A stretch of DNA of 64,000 nucleotides from a virus (taxonomy: Duplodnaviria > Heunggongvirae > Uroviricota > Caudoviricetes), in IMG/VR virus record IMGVR_UViG_2698536476_000008. One strand, written 5' to 3'. Both the position numbers and the translations under genes were made by a program. This document shows, in pieces, positions 36,879-64,000 of this stretch. Each line of letters opens with the position of its first letter. The first letter of the stretch is position 1. The notes below the pieces were generated by a model. It worked only from the letters and a program-made list of their open reading frames with translations, did no database searches and was not told the DNA's origin.

Positions 36879-37116
36879 AATTATGCCTCACTGTATTGAC
36901 AACACAGAGCCTGAAGCTCTGACCTACTGTTTCACCCATGATCCATGCTGGGGTAATCTAACAACATTGCGCTGTGTGTAAGATGAGCAATGCATAGCTG
37001 TAATGCCGTTGTATAAGGTTTCCCTGTTTGCTCATTTCCTTCTGAGCCGCTCTACAACGCTGAAGACACATTAAATAGTGAATCCAAAGTCGTATTACGA
37101 AACGGCGGCAAAACTA

Positions 37117-37133
37117 TAATTTATTAGAGCAAT
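37117..37133 (-). promoter_or_regulatory. C1 operator (ATTGCTCTAATAAATTA) on minus strand
   Basis: Reverse complement read. Confidence 0.55.
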
Positions 37134-37199
37134 TGTCAAACAACTATGAAAAACAATCCAGTTTTTGGCTGGTGGAGTGGGATTTTTCTCTCAAAATTT

Positions 37200-37216
37200 A
37201 TTGCTCTAATAATTCT
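37200..37216 (+). promoter_or_regulatory. C1 operator-like site (ATTGCTCTAATAATTCT)
   Basis: Direct read. Confidence 0.55.
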
Positions 37217-37259
37217 TGATTTTTATGCGCAGCTGGACGTAAACTCCTCTTCGGACCTA

Positions 37260-37293
37260 ATAACTTCGTATAGCATACATTATACGAAGTTAT
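37260..37293 (+). other. loxP site (ATAACTTCGTATA-GCATACAT-TATACGAAGTTAT)
   Basis: Exact 34-bp loxP sequence. Confidence 0.97.
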
Positions 37294-37482
37294 CTTAAGG
37301 GTTATTGAACATGATCAATTTACCTGTAAATCCATACAGTTCAATACCTTATCAGGTCAAATAGTGATCACTTGATCATTTGATCAAGGTTGCGCTACGT
37401 AAAATCTGCGAAATGTTGGCAGTGTTAGTGCTCCAGATTTCGCGTAGCGCACTTAGCACCACCAATCAATCAGAGGTGAAAA

Positions 37483-37704
37483 ATGGGATATTCAGCTGCT
37501 AAAGTGTCCACTCATCTTGAGCTTGAGAAAAACCGTGGTTACTGGCGGGCAAAAGGGTTTGATCGTGATAGTTGCCAACTGTCATTATCGCGCGGTGAAG
37601 AGAAAATAGAACGCACGCGCGGTCGCTGGCGTTTCTATGACGAGAACCATAAACAGGTAAAGGCAGAGCCGATCCTGTACACTTTACTTAAAACCATTAT
37701 CTGA
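37483..37704 (+). CDS. Hypothetical 73-aa ORF in the loxP-cre spacer
   Basis: GAGGTG RBS; could equally be non-coding leader. Confidence 0.25.
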   Translation: MGYSAAKVSTHLELEKNRGYWRAKGFDRDSCQLSLSRGEEKIERTRGRWRFYDENHKQVKAEPILYTLLKTII

Positions 37705-37711
37705 GTGTTAA

Positions 37712-38743
37712 ATGTCCAATTTACTGACCGTACACCAAAATTTGCCTGCATTACCGGTCGATGCAACGAGTGATGAGGTTCGCAAGAACCTGATGGACAT
37801 GTTCAGGGATCGCCAGGCGTTTTCTGAGCATACCTGGAAAATGCTTCTGTCCGTTTGCCGGTCGTGGGCGGCATGGTGCAAGTTGAATAACCGGAAATGG
37901 TTTCCCGCAGAACCTGAAGATGTTCGCGATTATCTTCTATATCTTCAGGCGCGCGGTCTGGCAGTAAAAACTATCCAGCAACATTTGGGCCAGCTAAACA
38001 TGCTTCATCGTCGGTCCGGGCTGCCACGACCAAGTGACAGCAATGCTGTTTCACTGGTCATGCGGCGGATTCGAAAAGAAAACGTTGATGCCGGTGAACG
38101 TGCAAAACAGGCATTGGCGTTCGAACGCACTGATTTCGACCAGGTTCGTTCACTCATGGAAAATAGCGATCGCTGCCAGGATATACGTAATCTGGCATTT
38201 CTTGGGATTGCTTATAATACCCTGCTACGTATAGCAGAAATTGCCAGGATCAGGGTTAAAGATATCTCACGTACTGACGGTGGGAGAATGTTAATCCATA
38301 TTGGCAGAACGAAAACGCTGGTTAGCACCGCAGGTGTAGAGAAGGCACTTAGCCTGGGGGTAACTAAACTGGTCGAGCGATGGATTTCTGTCTCTGGTGT
38401 AGCTGATGATCCGAATAACTACCTGTTTTGCCGGGTCAGAAAAAATGGTGTTGCCGCGCCATCTGCCACCAGCCAGCTATCAACTCGCGCCCTGGAAGGG
38501 ATTTTTGAAGCAACTCATCGATTGATTTACGGCGCTAAGGATGACTCTGGTCAGAGATACCTGGCCTGGTCTGGACACAGTGCCCGTGTCGGAGCAGCGC
38601 GAGATATGGCCCGCGCTGGAGTTTCAATACCGGAGATCATGCAAGCTGGTGGCTGGACCAATGTAAATATTGTCATGAACTATATCCGTAACCTGGATAG
38701 TGAAACAGGGGCAATGGTGCGCCTGCTGGAAGATGGCAATTAG
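37712..38743 (+). CDS. cre: Cre tyrosine recombinase
   Basis: 343-aa translation MSNLLTVHQNLPALPVDATSDEVRKNLMDMFRDRQAFSEHTWKMLLSVCRSWAAWCKLNNRKWFPAEPEDVRDYLLYLQARGLAVKTIQQHLGQLNMLHRRSGLPRPSDSNAVSLVMRRIRKENVDAGERAKQALAFERTDFDQVRSLMENSDRCQDIRNLAFLGIAYNTLLRIAEIARIRVKDISRTDGGRMLIHIGRTKTLVSTAGVEKALSLGVTKLVERWISVSGVADDPNNYLFCRVRKNGVAAPSATSQLSTRALEGIFEATHRLIYGAKDDSGQRYLAWSGHSARVGAARDMARAGVSIPEIMQAGGWTNVNIVMNYIRNLDSETGAMVRLLEDGN (to my recollection, standard Cre apart from possibly the final residue). Confidence 0.97.
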   Translation: MSNLLTVHQNLPALPVDATSDEVRKNLMDMFRDRQAFSEHTWKMLLSVCRSWAAWCKLNNRKWFPAEPEDVRDYLLYLQARGLAVKTIQQHLGQLNMLHRRSGLPRPSDSNAVSLVMRRIRKENVDAGERAKQALAFERTDFDQVRSLMENSDRCQDIRNLAFLGIAYNTLLRIAEIARIRVKDISRTDGGRMLIHIGRTKTLVSTAGVEKALSLGVTKLVERWISVSGVADDPNNYLFCRVRKNGVAAPSATSQLSTRALEGIFEATHRLIYGAKDDSGQRYLAWSGHSARVGAARDMARAGVSIPEIMQAGGWTNVNIVMNYIRNLDSETGAMVRLLEDGN

Positions 38744-39913: not shown

Positions 39914-40101
39914 TAAATATATTATTTTTAATCTTAAATGATTGACAACTGACAAGTGACTTGAGTCAGAATCATCACACGCCCGGTACGGATGGATCCC
40001 TTTTCAAATATTCCATGGACGGCACAGTCTGAGTACCGGGCGCTACCTTCAGTTGTATTGCTAAGCCGCCGCTGGTGGCTTTTCTTTTTTGTAGGGGCGC
40101 T

Positions 40102-40743
40102 ATGGATAAGAAAATATGCGTTGTTTCGATGAGCGTCGGCAAACCGGCGTCAATGACTGCTGCATGGATCAACAACGAGCTGATAATGGCTGAGCGGACC
40201 AGCTACCCTGAACGCCGCCGCGACATGGAACTCCAGCTGCTGCGCGAATTGCGAGAAAAAGAGGAAAAGGGTTTTATCGTGCTGGTGGAAGAGGAAAACA
40301 GCTTTATTACTGGTCGAGTTGGCCAGCGTGTAAGGTTGCGCGATCCCTTCATGAACGGCAGGCCGGTACTGATTGAAGCAATGCAGATTTACAAGGAGCT
40401 GGAACGCCAGAAAGCGATCAAGTTACCGCGCAAGGAATCCGGCAAATACATCCTCCACCAAAGCATCTTCGATTCCGAACACGATAAAAAAGGCGATGAA
40501 TTTTTCAACATCAACTGGAGCGAAATAACGACAGAGCATGTTCTGACGTTACTATGTTGCTTTGCGACGGAATACAACAACGTTGCCAGCGCAGACTACA
40601 TCAGGGCAATGGCTGGAGAAGTTGAGGCACGCCAGGAACCATCGTTACTAAGCCCTCTGATTAACATAATTCGCGGAACCCAAACGCTGGCACAAAAACA
40701 GGTGCCTAAGGGAGTATTAACAGGAAAAGGAAATTATCTATAA
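40102..40743 (+). CDS. Mat-position protein (particle maturation-like), start uncertain
   Basis: ORF track 40075..40743; late-promoter-like motif upstream. Confidence 0.4.
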   Translation: MDKKICVVSMSVGKPASMTAAWINNELIMAERTSYPERRRDMELQLLRELREKEEKGFIVLVEEENSFITGRVGQRVRLRDPFMNGRPVLIEAMQIYKELERQKAIKLPRKESGKYILHQSIFDSEHDKKGDEFFNINWSEITTEHVLTLLCCFATEYNNVASADYIRAMAGEVEARQEPSLLSPLINIIRGTQTLAQKQVPKGVLTGKGNYL

Positions 40744-40799
40744 ACGTCAATGCATTAGGGTATACTTCTCCGTAGAACTATAAGTAAATGGAGTAAGTA

Positions 40800-42104
40800 A
40801 TGAGCGAGTATATAGAAATTGCCTATGCAGCAGCTACACATAGGCTGTGCTTTCTTACAGGCACTGGATTTTCAAAGGCTGTTTCTGATGATAAAGCCCC
40901 AAGTTGGCAATCTTTATTGGAGCAACTGTGCGGTTTATTGAAGGATGGTGACTCACTCAAAGAGGAATTATTTCCTGATGGAAAAGCAAAAGACCTTAGC
41001 CTTGAAGAGGCTGCTCAAGTTATTGCACTAAAATTTATACTTTCGGGGAAAAATATTTACCAGGAGATTGAGAAAATCATAGCCTCAATCGAACTTGATC
41101 CATCAATTGAATATATTCAAGACTTTTTCAAAGAAAACACATTTAAAGTAATTACGACAAATTATGACAAGTTAGCAGAAAAACTGGCTGGAGAGAATCG
41201 AACGTGTACAATCACCCCCGGCCTGCCAATTCCAAAATATAATTGTGAGGTTAAAGTCTACCATGTTCACGGCTCTATAGACTCCCCATCAGATATGGTT
41301 GTTACTAGCGAGGATTATTTCAGATTTATAAATGGTAATTCTTACTTTTCAAATAAACTAAGCACAGTTCTACATGAAAACACTATTGTTATTCTTGGCT
41401 ATTCTCTAAGTGACGCGAACCTCAAGGCGATTATAAATGAATATAAGGTATTTTCACGGGACAACGTAATGTCCTCCAATATTTTCCTTATTTCCCGAGG
41501 AAAACTATTGCAACCTATTAAAGATTACTATTTTTCCTGCTTTGGGATTAGGGTTATAGATAAAACAGAGGTGTCTGATTTCTTTAGAAAACTTAACAAG
41601 AAAATTCCAGAAGCAAAAAAAATAAAAGACAAATTGAGGCACTCAATCAAATCGGTAATAAAAAACGGAAGAGAGTATAAAATAGAGTTCTTGAAGTTAG
41701 AGGATTCTTTTTATCATATCATTTCCTCCATTTCATCATCTGGATATAGCTGGAATGATGAAAAGGTATTAAATGTTTTTTGTGATATAATAGATAAAAA
41801 AATAGATCTTACTAAAGAGTCTGGCGCATGGGAGCAGTATGAACACCTGGCAAAATGGCTTATTTATTTCGGTAGTTTATTTGAAGTAAAAGGAACCAAC
41901 TTTGAGAAAAAATACATACATGCGGTTGAACACTCAATGACTTATATGAATAAACCTTACGAAACAGGCTACTCATGGCGAGCATATCTAGCCTGGAAAA
42001 CAAAATGGCCTTCACTGACAGCATCTAACCGCTCTCTTATTAAGAGTAAGATGGAAGAAATCCCGCTACAACAGATTCACGATATTATATCTAAGTTTAT
42101 ATAG
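40800..42104 (+). CDS. SIR2-like (sirtuin-fold, SIR2_2/DSR-ThsA type) protein with uncharacterised C-terminal half; candidate single-gene antiphage defense
   Basis: N-terminal motifs LCFLTGTGFSK, VITTNYDKL, KVYHVHGS; low GC relative to flanks; occupies the mat to lxc interval. Confidence 0.7.
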   Translation: MSEYIEIAYAAATHRLCFLTGTGFSKAVSDDKAPSWQSLLEQLCGLLKDGDSLKEELFPDGKAKDLSLEEAAQVIALKFILSGKNIYQEIEKIIASIELDPSIEYIQDFFKENTFKVITTNYDKLAEKLAGENRTCTITPGLPIPKYNCEVKVYHVHGSIDSPSDMVVTSEDYFRFINGNSYFSNKLSTVLHENTIVILGYSLSDANLKAIINEYKVFSRDNVMSSNIFLISRGKLLQPIKDYYFSCFGIRVIDKTEVSDFFRKLNKKIPEAKKIKDKLRHSIKSVIKNGREYKIEFLKLEDSFYHIISSISSSGYSWNDEKVLNVFCDIIDKKIDLTKESGAWEQYEHLAKWLIYFGSLFEVKGTNFEKKYIHAVEHSMTYMNKPYETGYSWRAYLAWKTKWPSLTASNRSLIKSKMEEIPLQQIHDIISKFI

Positions 42105-42112
42105 TATATTTA

Positions 42113-42139
42113 TCTCCGGCCTAATCTCCCTAGGCCGGA
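42113..42139. terminator. Bidirectional terminator hairpin (ctccggcc-taatctccctag-ggccggag) between convergent SIR2-like gene and lxc
   Basis: 8-bp GC-rich inverted repeat. Confidence 0.5.
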
Positions 42140-42145
42140 GAGTTC

Positions 42146-42394
42146 TTAATCAGCATTCAGGAGCAATGCGTTATCTATGATGATCTGCTCCCATTCCTCG
42201 AATGCCCGGTCGCGGACGCCCTGGGGAACGCTGTTAGTTTTGAAATCGACGACCGTCCGCCATTTTCCGTCCGGACGGTACATGCGCAGAGCTTTACTTC
42301 CCCCTTCCCTGCGCACCTCAACGTTATGCTTGTCAGCAAACTCTTGTAATGCTCGTAGCGTCCCATGCTTTACTGTGTAGTATCGCTTTTTCAA
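42146..42394 (-). CDS. Lxc/Bof-position protein (82 aa)
   Basis: Size and position downstream of ulx/darB. Confidence 0.4.
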   Translation of the reverse strand: MKKRYYTVKHGTLRALQEFADKHNVEVRREGGSKALRMYRPDGKWRTVVDFKTNSVPQGVRDRAFEEWEQIIIDNALLLNAD

Positions 42395-42831
42395 GTTTTC
42401 TCTCCAGCCTGTGCCAAGGCTTCAACTTCCAAATCGTAAGACTCAAACTCATAGTCCTGGTCGTCAACTTCTTCAGGCACTGGCAGTAAATGCCAGGCTG
42501 AGTATATCTGACCATTATCAAAACGCTCCTGGCTGTAGAGCGTCGCGGCTATGAGTGTTAGCGCCGGGCGGTCATAACGGTAAATTTTGCGAACGTCACG
42601 GTCAACGAGACGACCGAAATTACCATAACCGCGCTCCAGTAATAATTTTTTAATTTCCGGCCAGTATGGACCATAGCTGCGGTACAGGCGGGGATTTTTC
42701 AGTAATCGCCCGCGTAGCCCTGACAGGAAGAAATCAACGTATTCGTCTTCTGTCTTTCCTAACAACGCTGTACGGAGTACCGCCTCAAGATATGTTTTAT
42801 TCGGTTTTATTGTATCAGATAGTGTGGCCAT
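42391..42831 (-). CDS. Ulx-position protein (146 aa)
   Basis: ORF coupled between darB and lxc. Confidence 0.4.
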   Translation of the reverse strand: MATLSDTIKPNKTYLEAVLRTALLGKTEDEYVDFFLSGLRGRLLKNPRLYRSYGPYWPEIKKLLLERGYGNFGRLVDRDVRKIYRYDRPALTLIAATLYSQERFDNGQIYSAWHLLPVPEEVDDQDYEFESYDLEVEALAQAGEKT

Positions 42832-42864: not shown

Positions 42865-45800
42865 TTATGCGTATTGTTGGATGACGGCCAGAACGTCCGC
42901 CACGTTGTGTTTTGTCTCGATAATCCACCAGTTACCCGGGAAATCGCTGTTCTTCGCCTTCGCTGGCAGCCAGCGAGCGCCGAATTTCGCCTTGATTGCG
43001 TCTTTCGCACGGAAAAGAACGCCTTTCATGCCTGAGGCTTCCTGAAGCCCAAATACCTCGCCAGCGGCGAATTTTGGTGCGTACATCATCTTCAGGTCGG
43101 CGGTGGATACGCGATAATTCAGACCAAGAGACTGAGCTATGCTGGTGGCATCACCCTGTATTGATGATAACTCTTCTTGTTTCTCGTTTCTGGCGGCAAT
43201 CTCTTCCTCCGTGATGTTGCCAAGGGCTAGGTTTATCCGATCAGCGTCGGCCTGTTTCTCTTCATCGGTGCGCCCGGCAAGAACCGTGTTAATTCTCTGC
43301 AATATCTCCACATGATTCTTGCGCATGCTGAGCAATTCCGGCGTAACCTCGTTAAGATCCACCAGCCCAAGGATGGCAAGGTCGGAAAACATTGATACCA
43401 GGTTGTAGGTCATGCGATAGCTGAGTTGACCATAGGCTGATGGCAACTTCACCGCATCCATTTGATAGGCATCCATAAATTTAGAGCCGTCGTTTACGAC
43501 ATCCGCTATTGCAGGTGTGATTTTCCCTGTGGTGGCGGCCTCCCTGATTGCTGTTACCCACGATTGAGTCAGCGCGGCGACTGCATGATTCAGATTGGCT
43601 TCCCGTTCTGCTGCGATGCGCGCGCTTGCTGCGTCCATTGCCTGCTTGATCTCGGCTTTATTGCTGTAAATGCCAATGGTGCCAAACTGTGCTGTGGTGA
43701 TCTCATAATCTGACGCCCGGAACTCATTGGTACCGAAAATGGCATTGGTGACTTCAAGTTCAGAATCCCCGTTACGAGTAGCCCCCTGGCTTGTTTTTTC
43801 CGGCATTCTGGCGATCGCATCCGCTATTTTCTCCTGAATTGCTTCAGGGGATAGCGTATCTCCGTATGACGCGATTACATCGCCATAATTGGAGCCAAAC
43901 AGTTCAACCAGGAATGTTTCTGCCGAACGGATCTGGCGGTTATTCCCTTCCGACATCATACCAAGCACCCATTTTGCAATTGACGACTTCAGCGCGCCGT
44001 CACGGCGATCCGGGTAAACCGCATGCTTCAGTGGGTCCGTATAGGTACCAACAAAATCGATGCTATAGCCTGACTCTGTAGTCTGAACGCCGTATGAGTC
44101 AGTGATTTTGATCATGCCGCGCTGCTGGAAACGGTAGAAATCGTCACAGGAAATGATGTCGTTAATCCCGGCGATGGAGACGCCACCACTGATTTTCTGC
44201 ATAACAGCATCTTCATCGGGAGTTACATCAACCTGTTTATCCAGCGTCTTCACATCCCAGTTACCCGATTTGGTGCCTTTGAAGGTAAAGATGATCTCCA
44301 CGTCTGCGCGCTGGCTGTCGAAGTCCAGCGACTTAATGCGAACGATATCACCGGCACAATCATAGTATTGGCCTACACGCCATGAGCGATCGCCGATAAC
44401 AAGGAACTCATTCGCATGGTTAACCAGATCAGGATCAACATCCAGAATGCCTTTATTTATTGCATCCTCCACCAGCGGGCGCAGGCGTTTGATATCCGTC
44501 GCGGCCTTCTGAGTACGGTTCAATAATTTCTCATAGCGGGAGATGGCCTGAGAGATATTAGCCTTGCGCTGAATGGCGCTTTTCAACGACGCGCGATACT
44601 GTGCTAACAACATACGGTCTGTGTGATGGACGCTACCCCAGCGGGCTTTCCAGTCTGCGTTATCAGCTGCTTTGGCCATTACCGCCTGTTTGAATTTAGC
44701 TACCTCGGCGGTGGTCTTTTCAAGTTCCGCTTTGCTTCGCTCCAATTCAGCGGTAAGTACCTCCACATCCTCACCAGCTGCGTGCTGCGCCTTGATGTAG
44801 TTCTGAAGGTCGATAGTAGCCTGTTCTTTCTGGCGAGCGCGTTTCGCAGCTTTCGCCTTATCCATTTGAACCTGCATCATTGCCAGACGTTCGCCGTCAT
44901 CCTTCGCGGTATACATCTGCATTTCGATCATGTCATTGGCGTCGGCGTTCTCCATTTCTGACTTATCTGAACGGAGGATATCGGAGATCCAGCCTGCTTT
45001 ACGCTTCAGCGTCTTCAGTCGGTATTCATCGAAAGACCCCTTGCCGCAGTAGTAGTGAACGCGAACGCTTGCACGGTTGGAGCCAACTCGTGCACCGCGA
45101 CCGTTACGTTGTGCGATGCTGGCTGGTGTCCATGGCAACGTCAGATGATGGATGTCAGTCGTTCCTCGATGCAGGTTGATACCCACCTCTGCCTTTTTGT
45201 TGCAGATGATGATCGGAGTCCGGCCCTCCTGGAAGTCGGCTGCAATCTTTTCCAGACCGCCCAACGACATTTCATTTTGCTGCGCGATATAGGCGTCATA
45301 CAGAGCCATTTGCTCGTTGTATTTCGCTATCTGTGCATCTGTTGGTTCATCCGGTAGCTCTTTCGGCGGTTTAACCGCTTTCAGTTTCTTACCGGTTTTA
45401 CCTGCCTCGGCAACCGTCTGAGCATTCAGGATCCCCACCTTTGAAGGTTCAAGGTTTAGAGCATTGCAGATAATGCGCTTGAGCTTCTGGTGCTGCGTTT
45501 TTTCATCGGTGAAGATGATTTGCTTACCTTCCGGGAAAAACTCCTTCAGCGTGGCGATCAGCTTCGCGTATTTCGGCGTAACGGGGTGAGTTACGGTCTG
45601 TTCGTCAATGCCAAACCTGGCCAGGCGCTTATTCACTTCCTGCTCGAACGCTTCCGGAACCTGCAACTGAATAAACTCGCCCTTATCTATCAGGGAGTAT
45701 TGCGATTGCTGCGTGATTGAATCATCACTGTCGTCGTCTTCGCTGGTGGCTTGTTTAGGCAAACTGTCCGCCAGCTGCTGCACCGCATCGGCGTACTCCG

Positions 45801-48800
45801 GCAGGAAACGATAGGTGATCCGGCGATAGTACAGGTCCATGTCAGTACATACGCGGTCCATATCCCTGATTATTGAGAAGATCGGACGGGCTTTCTCGTG
45901 CTCAATCACGCCGTCTTCATTGACCGAGGTCGTTACGCCATTGTTGGCTTTGGCCGCCGCTTCCGCCTGCTGACGCAATTCTTCATACGCCGCCAGTTGT
46001 TCTTCAGTAAGTGGTGCATCCTGCTGGTGTTCGTCCAGCTCCGGGATCTCCACGGTATCCTTAACGTCTTCCGCCGTTTTAAGCGTTACCCAGCGATGGA
46101 ATATACCGCGCAGCGCATCAAGGTTTTCAAAGCCCACCAGCGCCATTTTTTCTTCAACTTCACCGCTAATTTTCTGTACCGTTTCCAGCCTGGTCTTGCC
46201 GAAGAATTTAACGAAGTCATCAGGACCGTAGATCCCCATGTTCTGCCAGTATTCCTTCGGCAGAACATGAGAAAGCATGTTGTATGCATCGATCGGGGTG
46301 TTAACGACTGGCGTTGCAGTCAGGAGAACCGGCCCGCGCCCGCCATTCTTTTTCATCAGGTACGCGTTTTTAATTGCCATATCTCGCGCCGATTGCGCCA
46401 CCGCGCTGGTGGGCAGATAGGCCAGTTGTGACGCTTCGCGACCATTTTTATAGCTATTGCGGTAGTTGTGACCTTCGTCGGCGATCACACTATCGAAGCC
46501 CATATCCTCAAAGTACGGATACTTCTCTGCTTTTTCGGTGCCGGTATCTGAATACTCCGACAATACCCGGCGACGCGCGGCCTCTTTGCGGTGGGAGTCG
46601 GAGTCCATTGCGCTGGCTACGCGCCCGGCTGCAACGAAGTCATAAAGCATATCCTGTGCATGCTCATCTACGGTGTCATCACGTAGCGGAATGCGGGCGT
46701 ATTGTTCTTTGGTAAACACGACTGCACGGTAATTTGAGTGCGGGATCGCGTTCATCCGCGCCGTGATAGTGGCTTCATCTGCCAGTTTTAGGGCATCGCG
46801 CATAACTGGAGTGCCATCAGTACCAAGAACAGGTTTACCGTTCTCATCGAGCACCGGCACCTGGCGAATCTGATCGCCATCCATCAGCACATCAAGACCG
46901 ACGAACAGGTAGTTACTGAATGCCTCTTCACTCAGGAATTCTTTTGCTTCGTAATACCAGTTTTCCAGCACTGATTTAGGCACTACATACGCAGTACGGG
47001 TGGAGCGACCGTTCTCATAGTTGAACGCCTCAAGCGCCAGCGCGGTCGTAGTTTTACCCAGCCCGGTGCCGAAGCCCAGGATGCCGCGCCCATCTTCGGA
47101 CAGTCGGCGCACTTCGCTATTCTGGTAATCAAATGGCTGGCGCTTACCGCTTAATCCCTTCAACCCAAGCGGATCGCCAGAGTGTTCATACGGGATATTG
47201 CTATTGAACACATCGTTGTATTTGGCAACCAGTTCATCGTAGCGATCGTGCGTCTTGATCCACTTATTGAACTGGTCCTCAAGCAGTGCCATCTGCTCGC
47301 GGTAGCCGTTCGCCGTCGCGCTATCTTTGCCACCGATACGCGCACCATTGAGATACTTTTCCAGCTGTGCCGGGAACCCGGTCGCGTTTTCACCTGATTT
47401 ACGGTCCCACTCGTAGCGGATCTCGCCTGTTTCTTTATCCTTGCGCTGGACGACACCGTATCGGTGCCCGACGAACAGGCCATCACCACCGTGATAGGTG
47501 TCAGAAACCATTTCGTCGCCTTCCAGCTGCACTGACTGCACATAGCGCAGATCCGGATAGCCGTTTTCCTGCAAAAACTCCAGAATGACGGAACGGTCGA
47601 ACCAACGGCTATTGAGCTTAAACCGGATATTCTCTGCTGGCGTCTTGATGCGCTTCTCTTCGATCGCTGCCAGCTGATTAAGGACGTTGTTCTTTACTGG
47701 ACCGTCGGGGAGCGTGGCGAGGAATTCCTGTTTTGGAGCCACTATCTCGTTAATGTCGCCGCTGGTGGCGCGGGCGAACGGAACAATCCCGCCATACGGT
47801 GAAACCGCAATACCAGGAGTGCTGGCCAATAAATTAAGCAACTCTTCATCACTGGCTGGCAATTCGCCGGTAAACGCAAGGCGGAAATCATCGAGCTGGA
47901 TTGGATCGCGGGTAAGATCGCTATAGAGATAACGCAGGGTGTCCTGATAGCTGGTGGAGTCATAACTGGCGCTGGAATCATGCGTAACCAGCTTTCCTGT
48001 CAGCTCGTCAGAAATAGTGCCATCCAGCTTAATTGCACCACGGAAAGCAAACCAGGCGCGCGCACCGCTTCCCGATAATTTAGCTATCGGACCGCGACCA
48101 GGGTTACCAAAACGGTCAATCTCTGCCTGCAAACGGGATACCAGAGAAAGGCGCTGCTGTTCGATTTGTTCAGCACTATGCCCGGCGGCCTTCATATCCT
48201 GATATTCAATTAACATCCGGCCAATCATCGCCCCACGATACAAGCGTTCACGGTATTTTTCAGGCTGGCTGTTAATCCAGTCCACCAGCTGCACCATATC
48301 GTCGCTGATTGATGTGGTGTACTTATCGCGGACATTTGCCATCTGGGTAAATGTCATACCGAGACGGCCTTCTGTTGTAGTCAGGTTACGCTGAAGAGCC
48401 TCCCAGCTATCCGCGCCATAACTGGCAGCATCAATTTTAAGTTCCTTCCCGGCATCAGCTTCAATCCAGCGACCACCAGCATATTTTTGCCATACGCCAT
48501 TAATCAGGCGCATTTCCCCTTCACCAACAACGTCTGCGGTCAGTGACGGTTCAGCCATATCGAGCAAAGACCAGTCGATACGGCTTTCGAAACGATGAAT
48601 CAGCTTCGCTTTAAGAGCCTGGTTATCAATCTGACCGTCGGCACGAACCTCAATACGCCCCTGGAAGCCCTTTTCCTGGGTGCCATGAACAAACCGGCGG
48701 CCATCCTTTTCAAACCACTTGCCAGAAATAAACGTTGGCCAAAGCACATTTGCCGATTCAAGAGTGCTTTCATCCACCAGGGGGATTTTCTCAGCCATCT

Positions 48801-49632
48801 CTGCCGGATGTTTGCGCATCAGCACCACATCAACGACTGTACTGGTCCCGTTTGCGTCAAAAGTACCGGTAGGCAAGCGGTGGGCACCAAGAAATTCAGC
48901 TTTCCGTGATAGGCGCAGGCGTAACCGCTTCATGTTTGAACCTGAAACAATGGACGGCGGCACAATCACGCACATGAATCCGCCTGGCTTTATCTTGTCC
49001 AGCATGCGGAGCATGAAGTAAGAACCCATGTCCGTTTCTTCTGCGTAAGGCTTATCGATGTTGCGTGTGTTATCACGACCGCCGAACGGAACGTTACCCA
49101 CAACATGGTCGAATGAATCGTTAGGCGTGCTTATAGCCAGCTGTTCGAACGGGGAAATCTGTACGCTGTCTTCCGGGTGTAACAACTGGTTTATACGACC
49201 GGAAACACTGCTGATCTCAGTCGCGGTCATCACCGTACCAACCGGTTTTGTCTCATTAAAAACGCCGGTTCCCGCCGATGGTTCCAGAGTGTTACCTACG
49301 TCCGCGCCGTAGAGCTTCATGATCTCCCAGACACCTTCAGCGATCGGCTTTGGTGTGTAATATTCGGAGACGGACCCGCCAATGCCGCCTTCACCGGTGT
49401 ACCCAGCCAGGATCTGGCGCTGTTCATCTGTCAGTGTCGCGCCGTCCACCAGCGAATTAAGCAAATCTATCGCCTTCTGATTCGCCTCCCGGCGTAGTCG
49501 GTCATAGCTTTTGCCTTCCACCTTTTCCACGCCGTATCTAATCGGCGCTCGGTGAGATGTTATTGCCCTAATGTATTTCAATATTTCGCTGACACTTGAA
49601 CAGCGAAACACCCCCATAGATAGCTTGTTCAT
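42865..49632 (-). CDS. darB: DarB-like giant antirestriction protein (2255 aa) with N-terminal methyltransferase-like and helicase-like regions
   Basis: Single 6.8-kb ORF of exactly the size I recall for P1 DarB; DPPY-like and helicase motifs. Confidence 0.8.
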   Translation of the reverse strand: MNKLSMGVFRCSSVSEILKYIRAITSHRAPIRYGVEKVEGKSYDRLRREANQKAIDLLNSLVDGATLTDEQRQILAGYTGEGGIGGSVSEYYTPKPIAEGVWEIMKLYGADVGNTLEPSAGTGVFNETKPVGTVMTATEISSVSGRINQLLHPEDSVQISPFEQLAISTPNDSFDHVVGNVPFGGRDNTRNIDKPYAEETDMGSYFMLRMLDKIKPGGFMCVIVPPSIVSGSNMKRLRLRLSRKAEFLGAHRLPTGTFDANGTSTVVDVVLMRKHPAEMAEKIPLVDESTLESANVLWPTFISGKWFEKDGRRFVHGTQEKGFQGRIEVRADGQIDNQALKAKLIHRFESRIDWSLLDMAEPSLTADVVGEGEMRLINGVWQKYAGGRWIEADAGKELKIDAASYGADSWEALQRNLTTTEGRLGMTFTQMANVRDKYTTSISDDMVQLVDWINSQPEKYRERLYRGAMIGRMLIEYQDMKAAGHSAEQIEQQRLSLVSRLQAEIDRFGNPGRGPIAKLSGSGARAWFAFRGAIKLDGTISDELTGKLVTHDSSASYDSTSYQDTLRYLYSDLTRDPIQLDDFRLAFTGELPASDEELLNLLASTPGIAVSPYGGIVPFARATSGDINEIVAPKQEFLATLPDGPVKNNVLNQLAAIEEKRIKTPAENIRFKLNSRWFDRSVILEFLQENGYPDLRYVQSVQLEGDEMVSDTYHGGDGLFVGHRYGVVQRKDKETGEIRYEWDRKSGENATGFPAQLEKYLNGARIGGKDSATANGYREQMALLEDQFNKWIKTHDRYDELVAKYNDVFNSNIPYEHSGDPLGLKGLSGKRQPFDYQNSEVRRLSEDGRGILGFGTGLGKTTTALALEAFNYENGRSTRTAYVVPKSVLENWYYEAKEFLSEEAFSNYLFVGLDVLMDGDQIRQVPVLDENGKPVLGTDGTPVMRDALKLADEATITARMNAIPHSNYRAVVFTKEQYARIPLRDDTVDEHAQDMLYDFVAAGRVASAMDSDSHRKEAARRRVLSEYSDTGTEKAEKYPYFEDMGFDSVIADEGHNYRNSYKNGREASQLAYLPTSAVAQSARDMAIKNAYLMKKNGGRGPVLLTATPVVNTPIDAYNMLSHVLPKEYWQNMGIYGPDDFVKFFGKTRLETVQKISGEVEEKMALVGFENLDALRGIFHRWVTLKTAEDVKDTVEIPELDEHQQDAPLTEEQLAAYEELRQQAEAAAKANNGVTTSVNEDGVIEHEKARPIFSIIRDMDRVCTDMDLYYRRITYRFLPEYADAVQQLADSLPKQATSEDDDSDDSITQQSQYSLIDKGEFIQLQVPEAFEQEVNKRLARFGIDEQTVTHPVTPKYAKLIATLKEFFPEGKQIIFTDEKTQHQKLKRIICNALNLEPSKVGILNAQTVAEAGKTGKKLKAVKPPKELPDEPTDAQIAKYNEQMALYDAYIAQQNEMSLGGLEKIAADFQEGRTPIIICNKKAEVGINLHRGTTDIHHLTLPWTPASIAQRNGRGARVGSNRASVRVHYYCGKGSFDEYRLKTLKRKAGWISDILRSDKSEMENADANDMIEMQMYTAKDDGERLAMMQVQMDKAKAAKRARQKEQATIDLQNYIKAQHAAGEDVEVLTAELERSKAELEKTTAEVAKFKQAVMAKAADNADWKARWGSVHHTDRMLLAQYRASLKSAIQRKANISQAISRYEKLLNRTQKAATDIKRLRPLVEDAINKGILDVDPDLVNHANEFLVIGDRSWRVGQYYDCAGDIVRIKSLDFDSQRADVEIIFTFKGTKSGNWDVKTLDKQVDVTPDEDAVMQKISGGVSIAGINDIISCDDFYRFQQRGMIKITDSYGVQTTESGYSIDFVGTYTDPLKHAVYPDRRDGALKSSIAKWVLGMMSEGNNRQIRSAETFLVELFGSNYGDVIASYGDTLSPEAIQEKIADAIARMPEKTSQGATRNGDSELEVTNAIFGTNEFRASDYEITTAQFGTIGIYSNKAEIKQAMDAASARIAAEREANLNHAVAALTQSWVTAIREAATTGKITPAIADVVNDGSKFMDAYQMDAVKLPSAYGQLSYRMTYNLVSMFSDLAILGLVDLNEVTPELLSMRKNHVEILQRINTVLAGRTDEEKQADADRINLALGNITEEEIAARNEKQEELSSIQGDATSIAQSLGLNYRVSTADLKMMYAPKFAAGEVFGLQEASGMKGVLFRAKDAIKAKFGARWLPAKAKNSDFPGNWWIIETKHNVADVLAVIQQYA

Positions 49633-63342: not shown

Positions 63343-63915
63343 TTACAGCTCAGATTGAGTTTGGCGCTTCTCTACAGGATGATAACGATAAATCGTCGAT
63401 ACACCGATATCGTAAATAATTGCCAACTGTTTCCTGCTGTAGCCATTTTCGATCAACCTCGCTATTTGCTCATGTTGTTCTTTTGTCAACTTCGGGCGAC
63501 GTCCGCCAATGCGTCCCTGTTCGCGTGCAGCTGCCAGTCCGGCCAGTGTTCTCTCAACAATTAATTCACGTTCCATTTCTGCTAAAGCACCCATGACATG
63601 AAAAAAGAAACGCCCCATGGGTGTTGATGTGTCAATACTGTCTGTCAGACTACGGAAATTAACACCTTTTTCCCGCAACTCCTCTATAAGCGTGATAAGG
63701 TGTTTCATACTTCTGCCAAGCCTATCCAGCTTCCAGACAACCAGCGTATCTCCTTCTGATAAGGTTCTGAGCAGCTTTTTCAAGCCTGGTCTGGCTGACT
63801 TTGTTCCGCTTATTTTATCTTCAAAAATCAGTTCACATCCTGCGCAGTTCAGTGCATTTCTTTGTAAATCTGTGTTTTGGTCATTTGTTGACACACGAAT
63901 GTAGCCAATTTGCAT
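63343..63915 (-). CDS. cin: Cin serine DNA invertase
   Basis: MQIGYIRVSTNDQNTDLQRNAL...VVWKLDRLGRSMKHL...GRIGGRRPKLT; start at internal ATG of track ORF 63343..63924. Confidence 0.85.
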   Translation of the reverse strand: MQIGYIRVSTNDQNTDLQRNALNCAGCELIFEDKISGTKSARPGLKKLLRTLSEGDTLVVWKLDRLGRSMKHLITLIEELREKGVNFRSLTDSIDTSTPMGRFFFHVMGALAEMERELIVERTLAGLAAAREQGRIGGRRPKLTKEQHEQIARLIENGYSRKQLAIIYDIGVSTIYRYHPVEKRQTQSEL

Positions 63916-63968
63916 GAAAAACAACCTCTTTGTTTAGTTAAAAATACATCGTTGGTATAGGTAGGGAT

Positions 63969-63994
63969 TAAGACTAAAACGTTGGTTTGGGGGA
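63969..63994. other. Candidate cix-like crossover site (imperfect inverted repeat around AAAACGTTGGTTT) upstream of cin at window edge
   Basis: Resembles Gin/Hin/Cin-type sites (AAAACC-NN-GGTTT core); truncated by window end. Confidence 0.3.
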
Positions 63995-64000
63995 AGGCTC

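Follow-up and report, generated by a model that had tools for sequence, protein, structure and literature searches.

A family-specific helical domain as a candidate sensor in a SIR2-family protein of a P1-like phage-plasmid

A SIR2-family protein encoded on a P1-like phage-plasmid raises the question of what its C-terminal half, which carries no recognizable motif, contributes to a putative anti-phage enzyme. The stretch analyzed here in full, referred to as the window, is the 64,000-nucleotide virus record IMGVR_UViG_2698536476_000008 (Caudoviricetes), which is a P1-like phage-plasmid by gene content. The initial annotation had proposed that nucleotides 41580-42104 encode a possible sensor domain. 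The open reading frame (ORF) to which they belong is real, having 434 codons on the plus strand (40800-42104), and the marked region corresponds to residues 261-434 plus the stop codon. The reading preferred here, to which a probability of roughly 0.45 is attached, is that the protein is a SIR2 NAD+ hydrolase (NADase) resembling a miniature DSR2, in which the helical C-terminal domain (CTD) would restrain the SIR2 domain until a ligand arising from infection, most probably a phage protein, frees it.

The N-terminal domain is identified by Pfam SIR2_2 (PF13289) with 83.8 bits against a cutoff of 24.5 over residues 117-245. The predicted catalytic residues Asn-121 and His-157 and the glycine-rich NAD loop (T20-G21-T22-G23-F24-S25) are invariant among 52 homologs, and the DSR2 residue aligned with His-157, H171, is the one changed in the PDB entries titled 'DSR2 H171A'. 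PDB sequence searches match ThsA, DSR2, and KomC over the SIR2 part only; DSR2 is the best sequence-profile match and the sole one spanning the entire SIR2 domain, with residues 7-257 of the family profile aligning to DSR2 33-273 at an expectation value (E) of 2e-11. DSR2, KomC, and ThsA are also the best solved structures in a Foldseek search with the SIR2 domain, in which the nearest structures (these three together with Avs5-SIR2 and SIR2-HerA) are all anti-phage NADases. The domain falls in the SIR2_2/ThsA/DSR clade, outside the classical sirtuin deacylases. Judged by its sequence it carries every feature expected of an active defense NADase and is predicted to hydrolyze NAD+. Residues 181-230 (about 41340-41489) are among the most conserved segments of the SIR2 domain (Y182, F183, S184, K186, S188, T189, E193, N194, G200, Y201, S202, D205, and N207), yet have the lowest AlphaFold confidence, with a predicted local distance difference test score (pLDDT) of 52-64. 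This segment may be a mobile lid over the active site or an interface requiring a partner or oligomer.

The AlphaFold2 model of the full-length protein, built with a homolog alignment, has a pLDDT of 83.7 and a predicted template modeling score (pTM) of 0.80, the latter pointing to a defined two-domain arrangement; the CTD modeled alone has values of 85.3 and 0.78. The last SIR2 strand is formed by residues 250-253, and the CTD opens with a long helix (residues 258-289) followed by eight more helices, β-structure being limited to two isolated bridge residues. The structural boundary therefore lies at about residue 254-258, somewhat earlier than the residue of about 260 given in the initial annotation, and the peptide quoted there as the start of the region, KIKDKLRHSIKSV, begins at residue 274 (nucleotide 41619). 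Structure prediction with a Foldseek search, which had been proposed as a check, gives an ordered all-α fold (pLDDT about 85, pTM 0.78-0.80) where disorder would have spoken against a sensor, and it finds no significant structural relative, the best match (E 0.15) being to designed helical repeats. The model is best described as a short HEAT/ARM-like helical repeat of about four hairpins that appears to be without a specific solved relative. Since SLOG, TIR, and RecA-helicase folds are α/β, the predicted all-α fold excludes them, in agreement with the suggestion that the region is neither a ThsA-type SLOG domain nor a TIR or helicase domain.

Homology searches with the protein return 665 matches. 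The best 120 are nearly all of about 431-445 amino acids with 54-61% identity and 94-100% query coverage, the exceptions being the identical P0001 and one partial sequence of 405 amino acids. There are 20 invariant CTD positions in the 52-sequence alignment. Four lie in the most conserved helix (WEQYEHLAKWLIYFGSL), seven in a second block (G390, S392, W393, W399, W403, N410, and R411), and S379, M380, and M383 are also among them. This conservation, together with that of the full length among hundreds of homologs with 55-60% identity, means that the CTD is not a chance extension of the ORF. Variation within the CTD is greatest in the helices 258-289 and 321-337 and in the final 16 residues.

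The description of the region as lacking an assignable motif holds in profile searches. Pfam gives sub-threshold noise only with the CTD (OTU, 16 bits against a cutoff of 23.3) and matches no repeat family, PADLOC returns 0 families, NCBIfam has no match, and the best PDB sequence-profile hit has an E value of 0.27. The PADLOC models PDC-S25, ThsA, LmuA, Dsr2, and SIR2 match the N-terminal region alone, and the ThsA, Dsr, and LmuA models cease aligning by residue 220-260 or thereabouts. In PHROGs, a CTD search recovers only the protein's own family, phrog_7567, and phrog_35181. The latter has 156 positions that are exactly residues 279-434 of the SIR2 protein, and it is probably composed of truncated or mis-called prophage ORFs rather than being an independent CTD-only family. 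A CTD-only profile searched against 1.84 billion representative proteins retrieves 96 clusters, from which two marginal repeat-protein matches with E values above 1e-4 were set aside. The clusters comprise proteins of 346-480 amino acids with the CTD at about 230-465, or shorter fragment-like sequences. An N-terminal SIR2_2 domain is present in all 9 of the 9 divergent near-full-length members tested; a marginal match of 1,448 amino acids without SIR2_2 was judged to be due to chance. As the near-full-length matches share the same architecture and those tested carry the SIR2_2 domain, the CTD is exclusive to this SIR2 family.

Two allele lineages of the family occupy the same site in P1-like elements of Escherichia coli, the slot between mat and lxc. 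Lineage 1, the cassette of the window, is found in 69 of 5,426 complete E. coli genomes, and lineage 2 in 62, so that about 131 (roughly 2.4%) carry one or the other in this slot. The two are 59% identical in amino acid sequence overall, the SIR2 domain being at 64% and the CTD at 51%, and the alleles reside in plasmid backbones that are otherwise about 97-99% identical. Lineage 2 splits into sub-lineages of 83-86% nucleotide identity. A sliding window shows that their first 115-120 codons or so are nearly identical with the remainder diverged, which places recombination breakpoints within the gene; the 5' part has presumably been homogenized through recombination with the backbone. Of 66 PLSDB plasmids with a match, 65 have the whole cassette. 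Four plasmid matches (H70, H74, H78, and H115) have lost or gained 1-3 bases and are annotated as two coding sequences, which suggests that these alleles are frameshifted and possibly inactivated. Among deposited phage genomes none carries the SIR2 gene, its records being those of plasmids, including plasmids of E. coli.

The two halves of the protein evolve at different rates. Mean pairwise identity in the family is 55% for the CTD versus 70% for the SIR2 domain. Between the window allele and seven other lineage 1 alleles, the ratio of nonsynonymous to synonymous divergence (dN/dS, or omega) is 0.05-0.16 in the SIR2 domain and 0.14-1.05 in the CTD, and Fisher tests of nonsynonymous versus synonymous changes for the three closest alleles give p = 0.04, 0.004, and 0.01, tests that are non-independent because the alleles share substitutions. 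In lineage 2 the amino acid identity is 93-95% in the SIR2 part and 70-81% in the CTD. Because of the 5' homogenization, the lineage 2 comparison was redone on codons 125-253 versus 254-435. These blocks have dS values of 0.77-1.17 and 0.49-1.39, dN values of 0.042-0.068 and 0.105-0.193, and omega values of 0.04-0.07 and 0.11-0.22, respectively, with Fisher p values of 6e-5 to 0.03. With similar dS in the two halves, the CTD thus gains 2-4 times more amino acid change than the SIR2 domain, under purifying selection overall. Many lineage 1 substitutions in the CTD alter charge (K to E, D to N, and E to K) and fall on helices 258-289, 320-341, and 416-430, the invariant helix 344-358 being avoided; in helix 258-289 the substituted positions are 267, 269, 273, 277, and 281.

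These features can be accommodated in a mechanism in which a SIR2 NAD+ hydrolase, a 32-residue helix, and a family-specific HEAT/ARM-like domain of about 180 residues would act as one switch. In the lysogen the CTD would be packed on the SIR2 domain and help to hold it inactive. On infection by another phage the CTD would bind a ligand that the infection supplies, most probably a protein of the phage, and a conformational or oligomeric change would open the NAD+ pocket. NAD+ would then be depleted and the infected cell would abort the infection, protecting cells with the P1-like element. A role of the CTD in sensing or specificity is consistent with its faster evolution, with the presence of two allele lineages in one slot, and with the HEAT-like fold class of DSR2. 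The sensor suggestion is supported as far as it concerns a discrete, ordered, conserved, and faster-evolving domain, any ligand being putative. Its premise of a single-protein effector agrees with the SIR2 gene standing alone in a variable cargo slot. The suggestion is reasonable and modestly strengthened, and a sensing function is what we infer from these properties.

Several observations weigh against the DSR2-like reading. Among the 1.84 billion representative proteins the CTD is never fused to another effector, unlike many modular sensor domains, for which such shuffling is the usual evidence. The CTD has no specific relative, the MID and CTD regions of DSR2 included, which confines the analogy with DSR2 to fold class, and its 181 residues compare with a DSR2 sensor of about 700 residues that needs a dimeric cavity for its ligand. 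A cluster of invariant W/Q/Y/N/R residues points to a conserved partner or pocket and not to a rapidly changing phage target, and the invariant core rich in Trp is equally compatible with a role in scaffolding, autoinhibition, or oligomerization. As to the rates, the first lineage 2 contrast in dN/dS, between the whole N-terminal domain and the CTD, was inflated by the recombination-homogenized 5' third and was discarded; omega is well below 1 overall, and weaker constraint alone may explain the faster evolution of the CTD; and the allele comparisons are few and phylogenetically non-independent. In the literature searched, no experiment or paper on the family was found.

The same core and the same rates bear on a different explanation, that the CTD is a structural module serving autoinhibition, oligomerization, or as a filament scaffold, with the trigger sensed by the SIR2 domain itself or through a change in a metabolite. 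The PDB structures that best match the SIR2 domain (ThsA, KomBC, Avs5, and FAM118B) belong to enzymes working as tetramers or helical filaments. The strongly conserved, Trp-rich central helix and core of the CTD, its absence from other effectors, the omega values far under 1, and the high pTM, which suggests tight packing on the SIR2 domain, would all be expected of such a module. A pure scaffold is, however, not where alleles in nearly identical backbones would be expected to differ most, and the charge-altering substitutions concentrate on particular helices. This structural role is regarded as possible, if somewhat doubtful. Should the CTD be merely a scaffold, the finding shrinks to the annotation of one more SIR2 candidate.

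The neighborhoods of homologs were surveyed at 59 species-level loci, mostly of Proteobacteria with an actinobacterial locus, over 4 kb on each side. No neighbor family occurs in more than 3 of the 59 loci, and no conserved partner gene is apparent. One cluster recurring in 3 loci was considered as a partner and consists of resolvases; another is made up of FecR/sigma factors. The nearest 148 neighbors include ResIII, Mrr, TIR, dGTPase, reverse transcriptases, PD-T7-5, integrases, and resolvases, a mixture that is typical of defense islands and mobile elements. A chromosomal E. coli homolog (P0083, 56% identical; 8001-9311 in L001-L004) occupies the end of a lambdoid prophage directly after the integrase, adjoining the narP/ccm locus, which is a typical moron or defense position. 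Other loci are varied with the SIR2 gene likewise solitary, the gene downstream of the Pseudomonas homolog has no defense-family match, and some divergent family members sit among ordinary metabolic or transport genes.

ThsB-like TIR genes, with PDC-S66 as the best PADLOC family, lie near homologs in 3 of the 59 loci, the hosts being Vreelandella, a Pseudomonas metagenome-assembled genome, and Photobacterium. This adjacency could reflect a Thoeris-like pairing or mere neighborhood in defense islands. It bears on the proposal that the CTD is a receptor for a small-molecule signal, as in ThsA although helical instead of SLOG, with the signal made by a TIR protein nearby or elsewhere. One of the TIR genes is directly downstream of the homolog and co-oriented, and the invariant residues W344, Q346, Y347, S392, W393, N410, and R411 could shape a nucleotide pocket. 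Against this, 56 of the 59 loci, the window, and every P1-like copy have no TIR neighbor, and the three TIR genes vary in orientation and distance. TIR genes are common in defense islands in any case, the TIR proteins are full-length matches to a single-gene candidate family, and no nucleotide-binding fold is detected in the CTD. The proposal is considered quite unlikely. Little credence is likewise given to the wider claim that the CTD is a new type of ligand receptor, either a minimal phage-protein recognition module or a non-SLOG receptor for a TIR-made nucleotide, whose alleles would set the phages that are excluded. If it were such a nucleotide receptor, the family would be a Thoeris-like effector able to act in trans with TIR genes, at which the TIR adjacency in 3 of the 59 loci hints.

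At the Paracidovorax avenae locus (L007, 8335-12278, minus strand) a large gene 1 kb from the homolog encodes 1,135 amino acids and a further 189-residue AAA_23/SMC_N piece, and is possibly one frameshifted SMC-like defense gene. An SMC-like partner would be called for if the protein were an orphan Lamassu effector of the SIR2-bearing LmuA type, with a CTD that normally docks on the SMC-like LmuB/LmuC complex, and the PADLOC LmuA model (433 positions) does match residues 20-219 in register (E 2e-13). The match ends at residue 219-227 with the CTD excluded, an SMC/LmuB gene is absent from the window and does not recur among the 59 loci, and the P. avenae gene is on the strand opposite to the homolog and is not conserved at other loci, making a Lamassu origin very improbable.

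In the window, the SIR2 gene occupies a cassette whose limits were set by comparison with the phage RCS47, in which the mat-lxc slot is empty. The only gene in its 1,392 bp is the SIR2 ORF, which comes with a ribosome-binding site of its own and with one half of a strong hairpin terminator. The GC content of the gene is 0.35 versus 0.48 in the flanks; the 1 kb bin holding the ORF has 34% GC and the flanking bins about 47-49%. Other 1 kb bins of lower GC content (0.41-0.45 against about 0.49 for the backbone), at 26001-27000, 37001-38000, and 62001-64000, might be further acquired cargo. The hairpin has a perfect stem of 11 bp with the arms TCTCCGGCCTA ... TAGGCCGGAGA, and is likely a bidirectional terminator for the SIR2 gene and lxc. 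At the corresponding position RCS47 carries another hairpin; each cargo variant thus seems to bring or rebuild its own terminator. The coordinates of these features, of the protein domains, and of selected genes in other loci are collected in Table 1; Ref is also encoded in the window.

Table 1. Features of the SIR2 gene and its surroundings in the window, with related genes in other loci (coordinates refer to the window unless a locus is named)
Feature	Coordinates	Strand	Evidence or remark
Cre	37712-38743
Mat	40075-40743
Single-gene low-GC cassette between mat and lxc	40740..42131	.	RCS47 homology ends at 40739 and restarts at 42132; GC drop
Shine-Dalgarno-like GGAG	40790..40793	+	6 nt 5' of the ATG; sequence reading
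SIR2-family ORF, 434 aa, stand-alone	40800..42104	+	phrog_7567; ORF list, profile matches
N-terminal SIR2_2 domain, residues 1-253	40800..41558	+	Pfam, family profile, Foldseek
N121 codon (TTNYD motif), predicted catalytic Asn	41160..41162	+	Invariant; aligned with DSR2 and ThsA TTNYD
H157 codon (HVHGS motif), predicted catalytic His	41268..41270	+	Invariant; aligned with DSR2 H171
CTD, predicted all-α helical repeat, residues 254-434	41559..42101	+	Predicted model
Long connector helix, residues 258-289	41571..41666	+	Among the most variable CTD segments, entropy 1.74
Most conserved CTD helix, residues 344-360	41829..41879	+	Entropy 0.59; invariant W344, Q346, Y347, W353
Second conserved CTD block, residues 390-411	41967..42032	+	G-Y-S-W ... 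W ... W ... N-R; homolog alignment
11-bp-stem hairpin between the convergent SIR2 gene and lxc	42113..42141	.	Straddles the cassette edge; sequence
Lxc	42146-42394	-
Ulx	42391-42831	-
DarB	42865-49632	-
ThsB-like TIR gene, L014	9406-10311	+	Directly downstream, co-oriented; E 1.5e-109 to PDC-S66, 6e-52 to ThsB1
ThsB-like TIR gene, L033	6459-7208	-	PADLOC PDC-S66
ThsB-like TIR gene, L019	9979-10845	+	PADLOC PDC-S66
Lineage 2 SIR2-CTD gene, L093	2561-3868		Further examples in L094-L097

The mat-lxc slot holds different genes in the relatives, marking it as a variable cargo site. SJ46 (L085) has a gene of the RelA/SpoT family, possibly toxSAS-like, JL22 (L086) a hypothetical gene of 316 amino acids, Ro157c2YLVW (L088) one hypothetical and one helix-turn-helix gene, MH422554 about 1.2 kb without annotation, and RCS47 (L090) nothing. 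The slot of P1 itself is occupied by the Type III res/mod system, in agreement with the 'del res del mod' record for P1. A placement beside the P1 anti-restriction genes ulx and darB could also fit a deacylase, an ADP-ribosyltransferase, or a counter-defense or regulatory factor serving the phage, with a CTD that targets a substrate protein or nucleic acid. The RefSeq name 'SIR2 family NAD-dependent protein deacylase', the frequent binding of protein substrates by helical repeats, and the divergent members found among metabolic and transport genes point the same way. Set against these are the clade of the domain, which is not that of the classical sirtuin deacylases, the chromosomal location of most homologs among restriction and other defense genes, and the restriction system in the same slot of P1. 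A function other than defense by NAD+ hydrolysis is accordingly thought unlikely.

Under the preferred DSR2-like reading, with a CTD that senses the trigger, the protein would rank with the smallest known SIR2 proteins that combine effector and sensor (434 amino acids versus about 1,000 for DSR2) and a tractable model of a helical repeat gating a SIR2 NADase, for which the natural CTD alleles provide a ready set for specificity swaps. Its common carriage in E. coli in divergent lineages means that it may shape competition between phages. One cassette record is named pPC6-mcr1, and some carrier phage-plasmids bear resistance genes such as mcr-1; in E. coli of clinical and livestock origin, the gene may influence how well phage therapy or transduction succeeds.

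Comparison with known systems places the protein closest to DSR2 of Bacillus subtilis, which is likewise a single protein with an N-terminal SIR2_2 NADase domain and the conserved catalytic Asn and His. DSR2 has about 1,005 amino acids, of which about 700 form a Linker, a helical bundle, and 11 HEAT-like repeats, whereas the CTD here has 181. The C-terminal regions of DSR2 have no detectable sequence or Foldseek similarity to the CTD, DSR2 not being among the CTD Foldseek matches listed. With the NCBIfam Dsr2 model the score is 30.6 bits, over the SIR2 part alone, where the cutoff is 1,400, and the DSR1 model gives 21.2 bits with a cutoff that is also 1,400. By analogy the protein would function most like DSR2, with about a quarter of its non-catalytic mass, yet it is no DSR2.

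ThsA of type I Thoeris is also a SIR2_2 effector of similar size (about 476 amino acids) with significant sequence and structure matches and a two-domain effector-plus-sensor layout. Its C terminus is an α/β SLOG (STALD) domain that binds glycocyclic ADP-ribose (gcADPR), with the TIR protein ThsB as partner, whereas the CTD is all-α and has no SLOG match. The PADLOC ThsA models align to residues 117-236 only, and ThsB is found neither in the window, where the neighbors are mat and lxc, nor in 56 of the 59 loci. The best PADLOC match is the single-gene SIR2 candidate system PDC-S25 (E 5e-24), with which phrog_2695 is grouped as a near family. Residues 100-253 match positions 127-283 of its 517-position profile, and the Pseudomonas homolog matches positions 26-267. 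The C-terminal 230 or so positions are unmatched, which indicates that PDC-S25 has a different CTD; in the literature searched, PDC-S25 is mentioned only in one strain inventory. SIR2-HerA (Nezha) differs in its partner, as no HerA gene is present in the slot of the window and none recurs in the 59 loci, and its structure is a weak match to the SIR2 domain (Foldseek E 0.013 or worse). The SIR2-type Lamassu protein LmuA resembles the SIR2 domain only, as set out above.

Two existing families contain the protein at full length. It aligns over residues 1-434 to positions 1-434 of the 434 in phrog_7567 (E 7.6e-291), which has no function label, and the RefSeq 'SIR2 family protein' WP_000006034.1 is of the same family over the full length with no annotation of the CTD; RefSeq gives this name to near-identical copies. 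Avs/STAND and other single-protein defense effectors fuse an enzymatic effector to an α-solenoid that recognizes a phage protein (PMC11850899). Avs/STAND proteins have an NTPase (nucleoside triphosphatase) switch domain, whereas the present protein is without one and its solenoid is very short. Related SIR2_2 domains bear other C termini, namely the SLOG domain in ThsA, the helical region of about 700 amino acids in DSR2, and the unmatched half of PDC-S25, so that these proteins diverge in what follows the SIR2 domain. The general kind, a SIR2 NADase with a C-terminal helical module for regulation or sensing, is known, and what is new here is the family-specific helical CTD.

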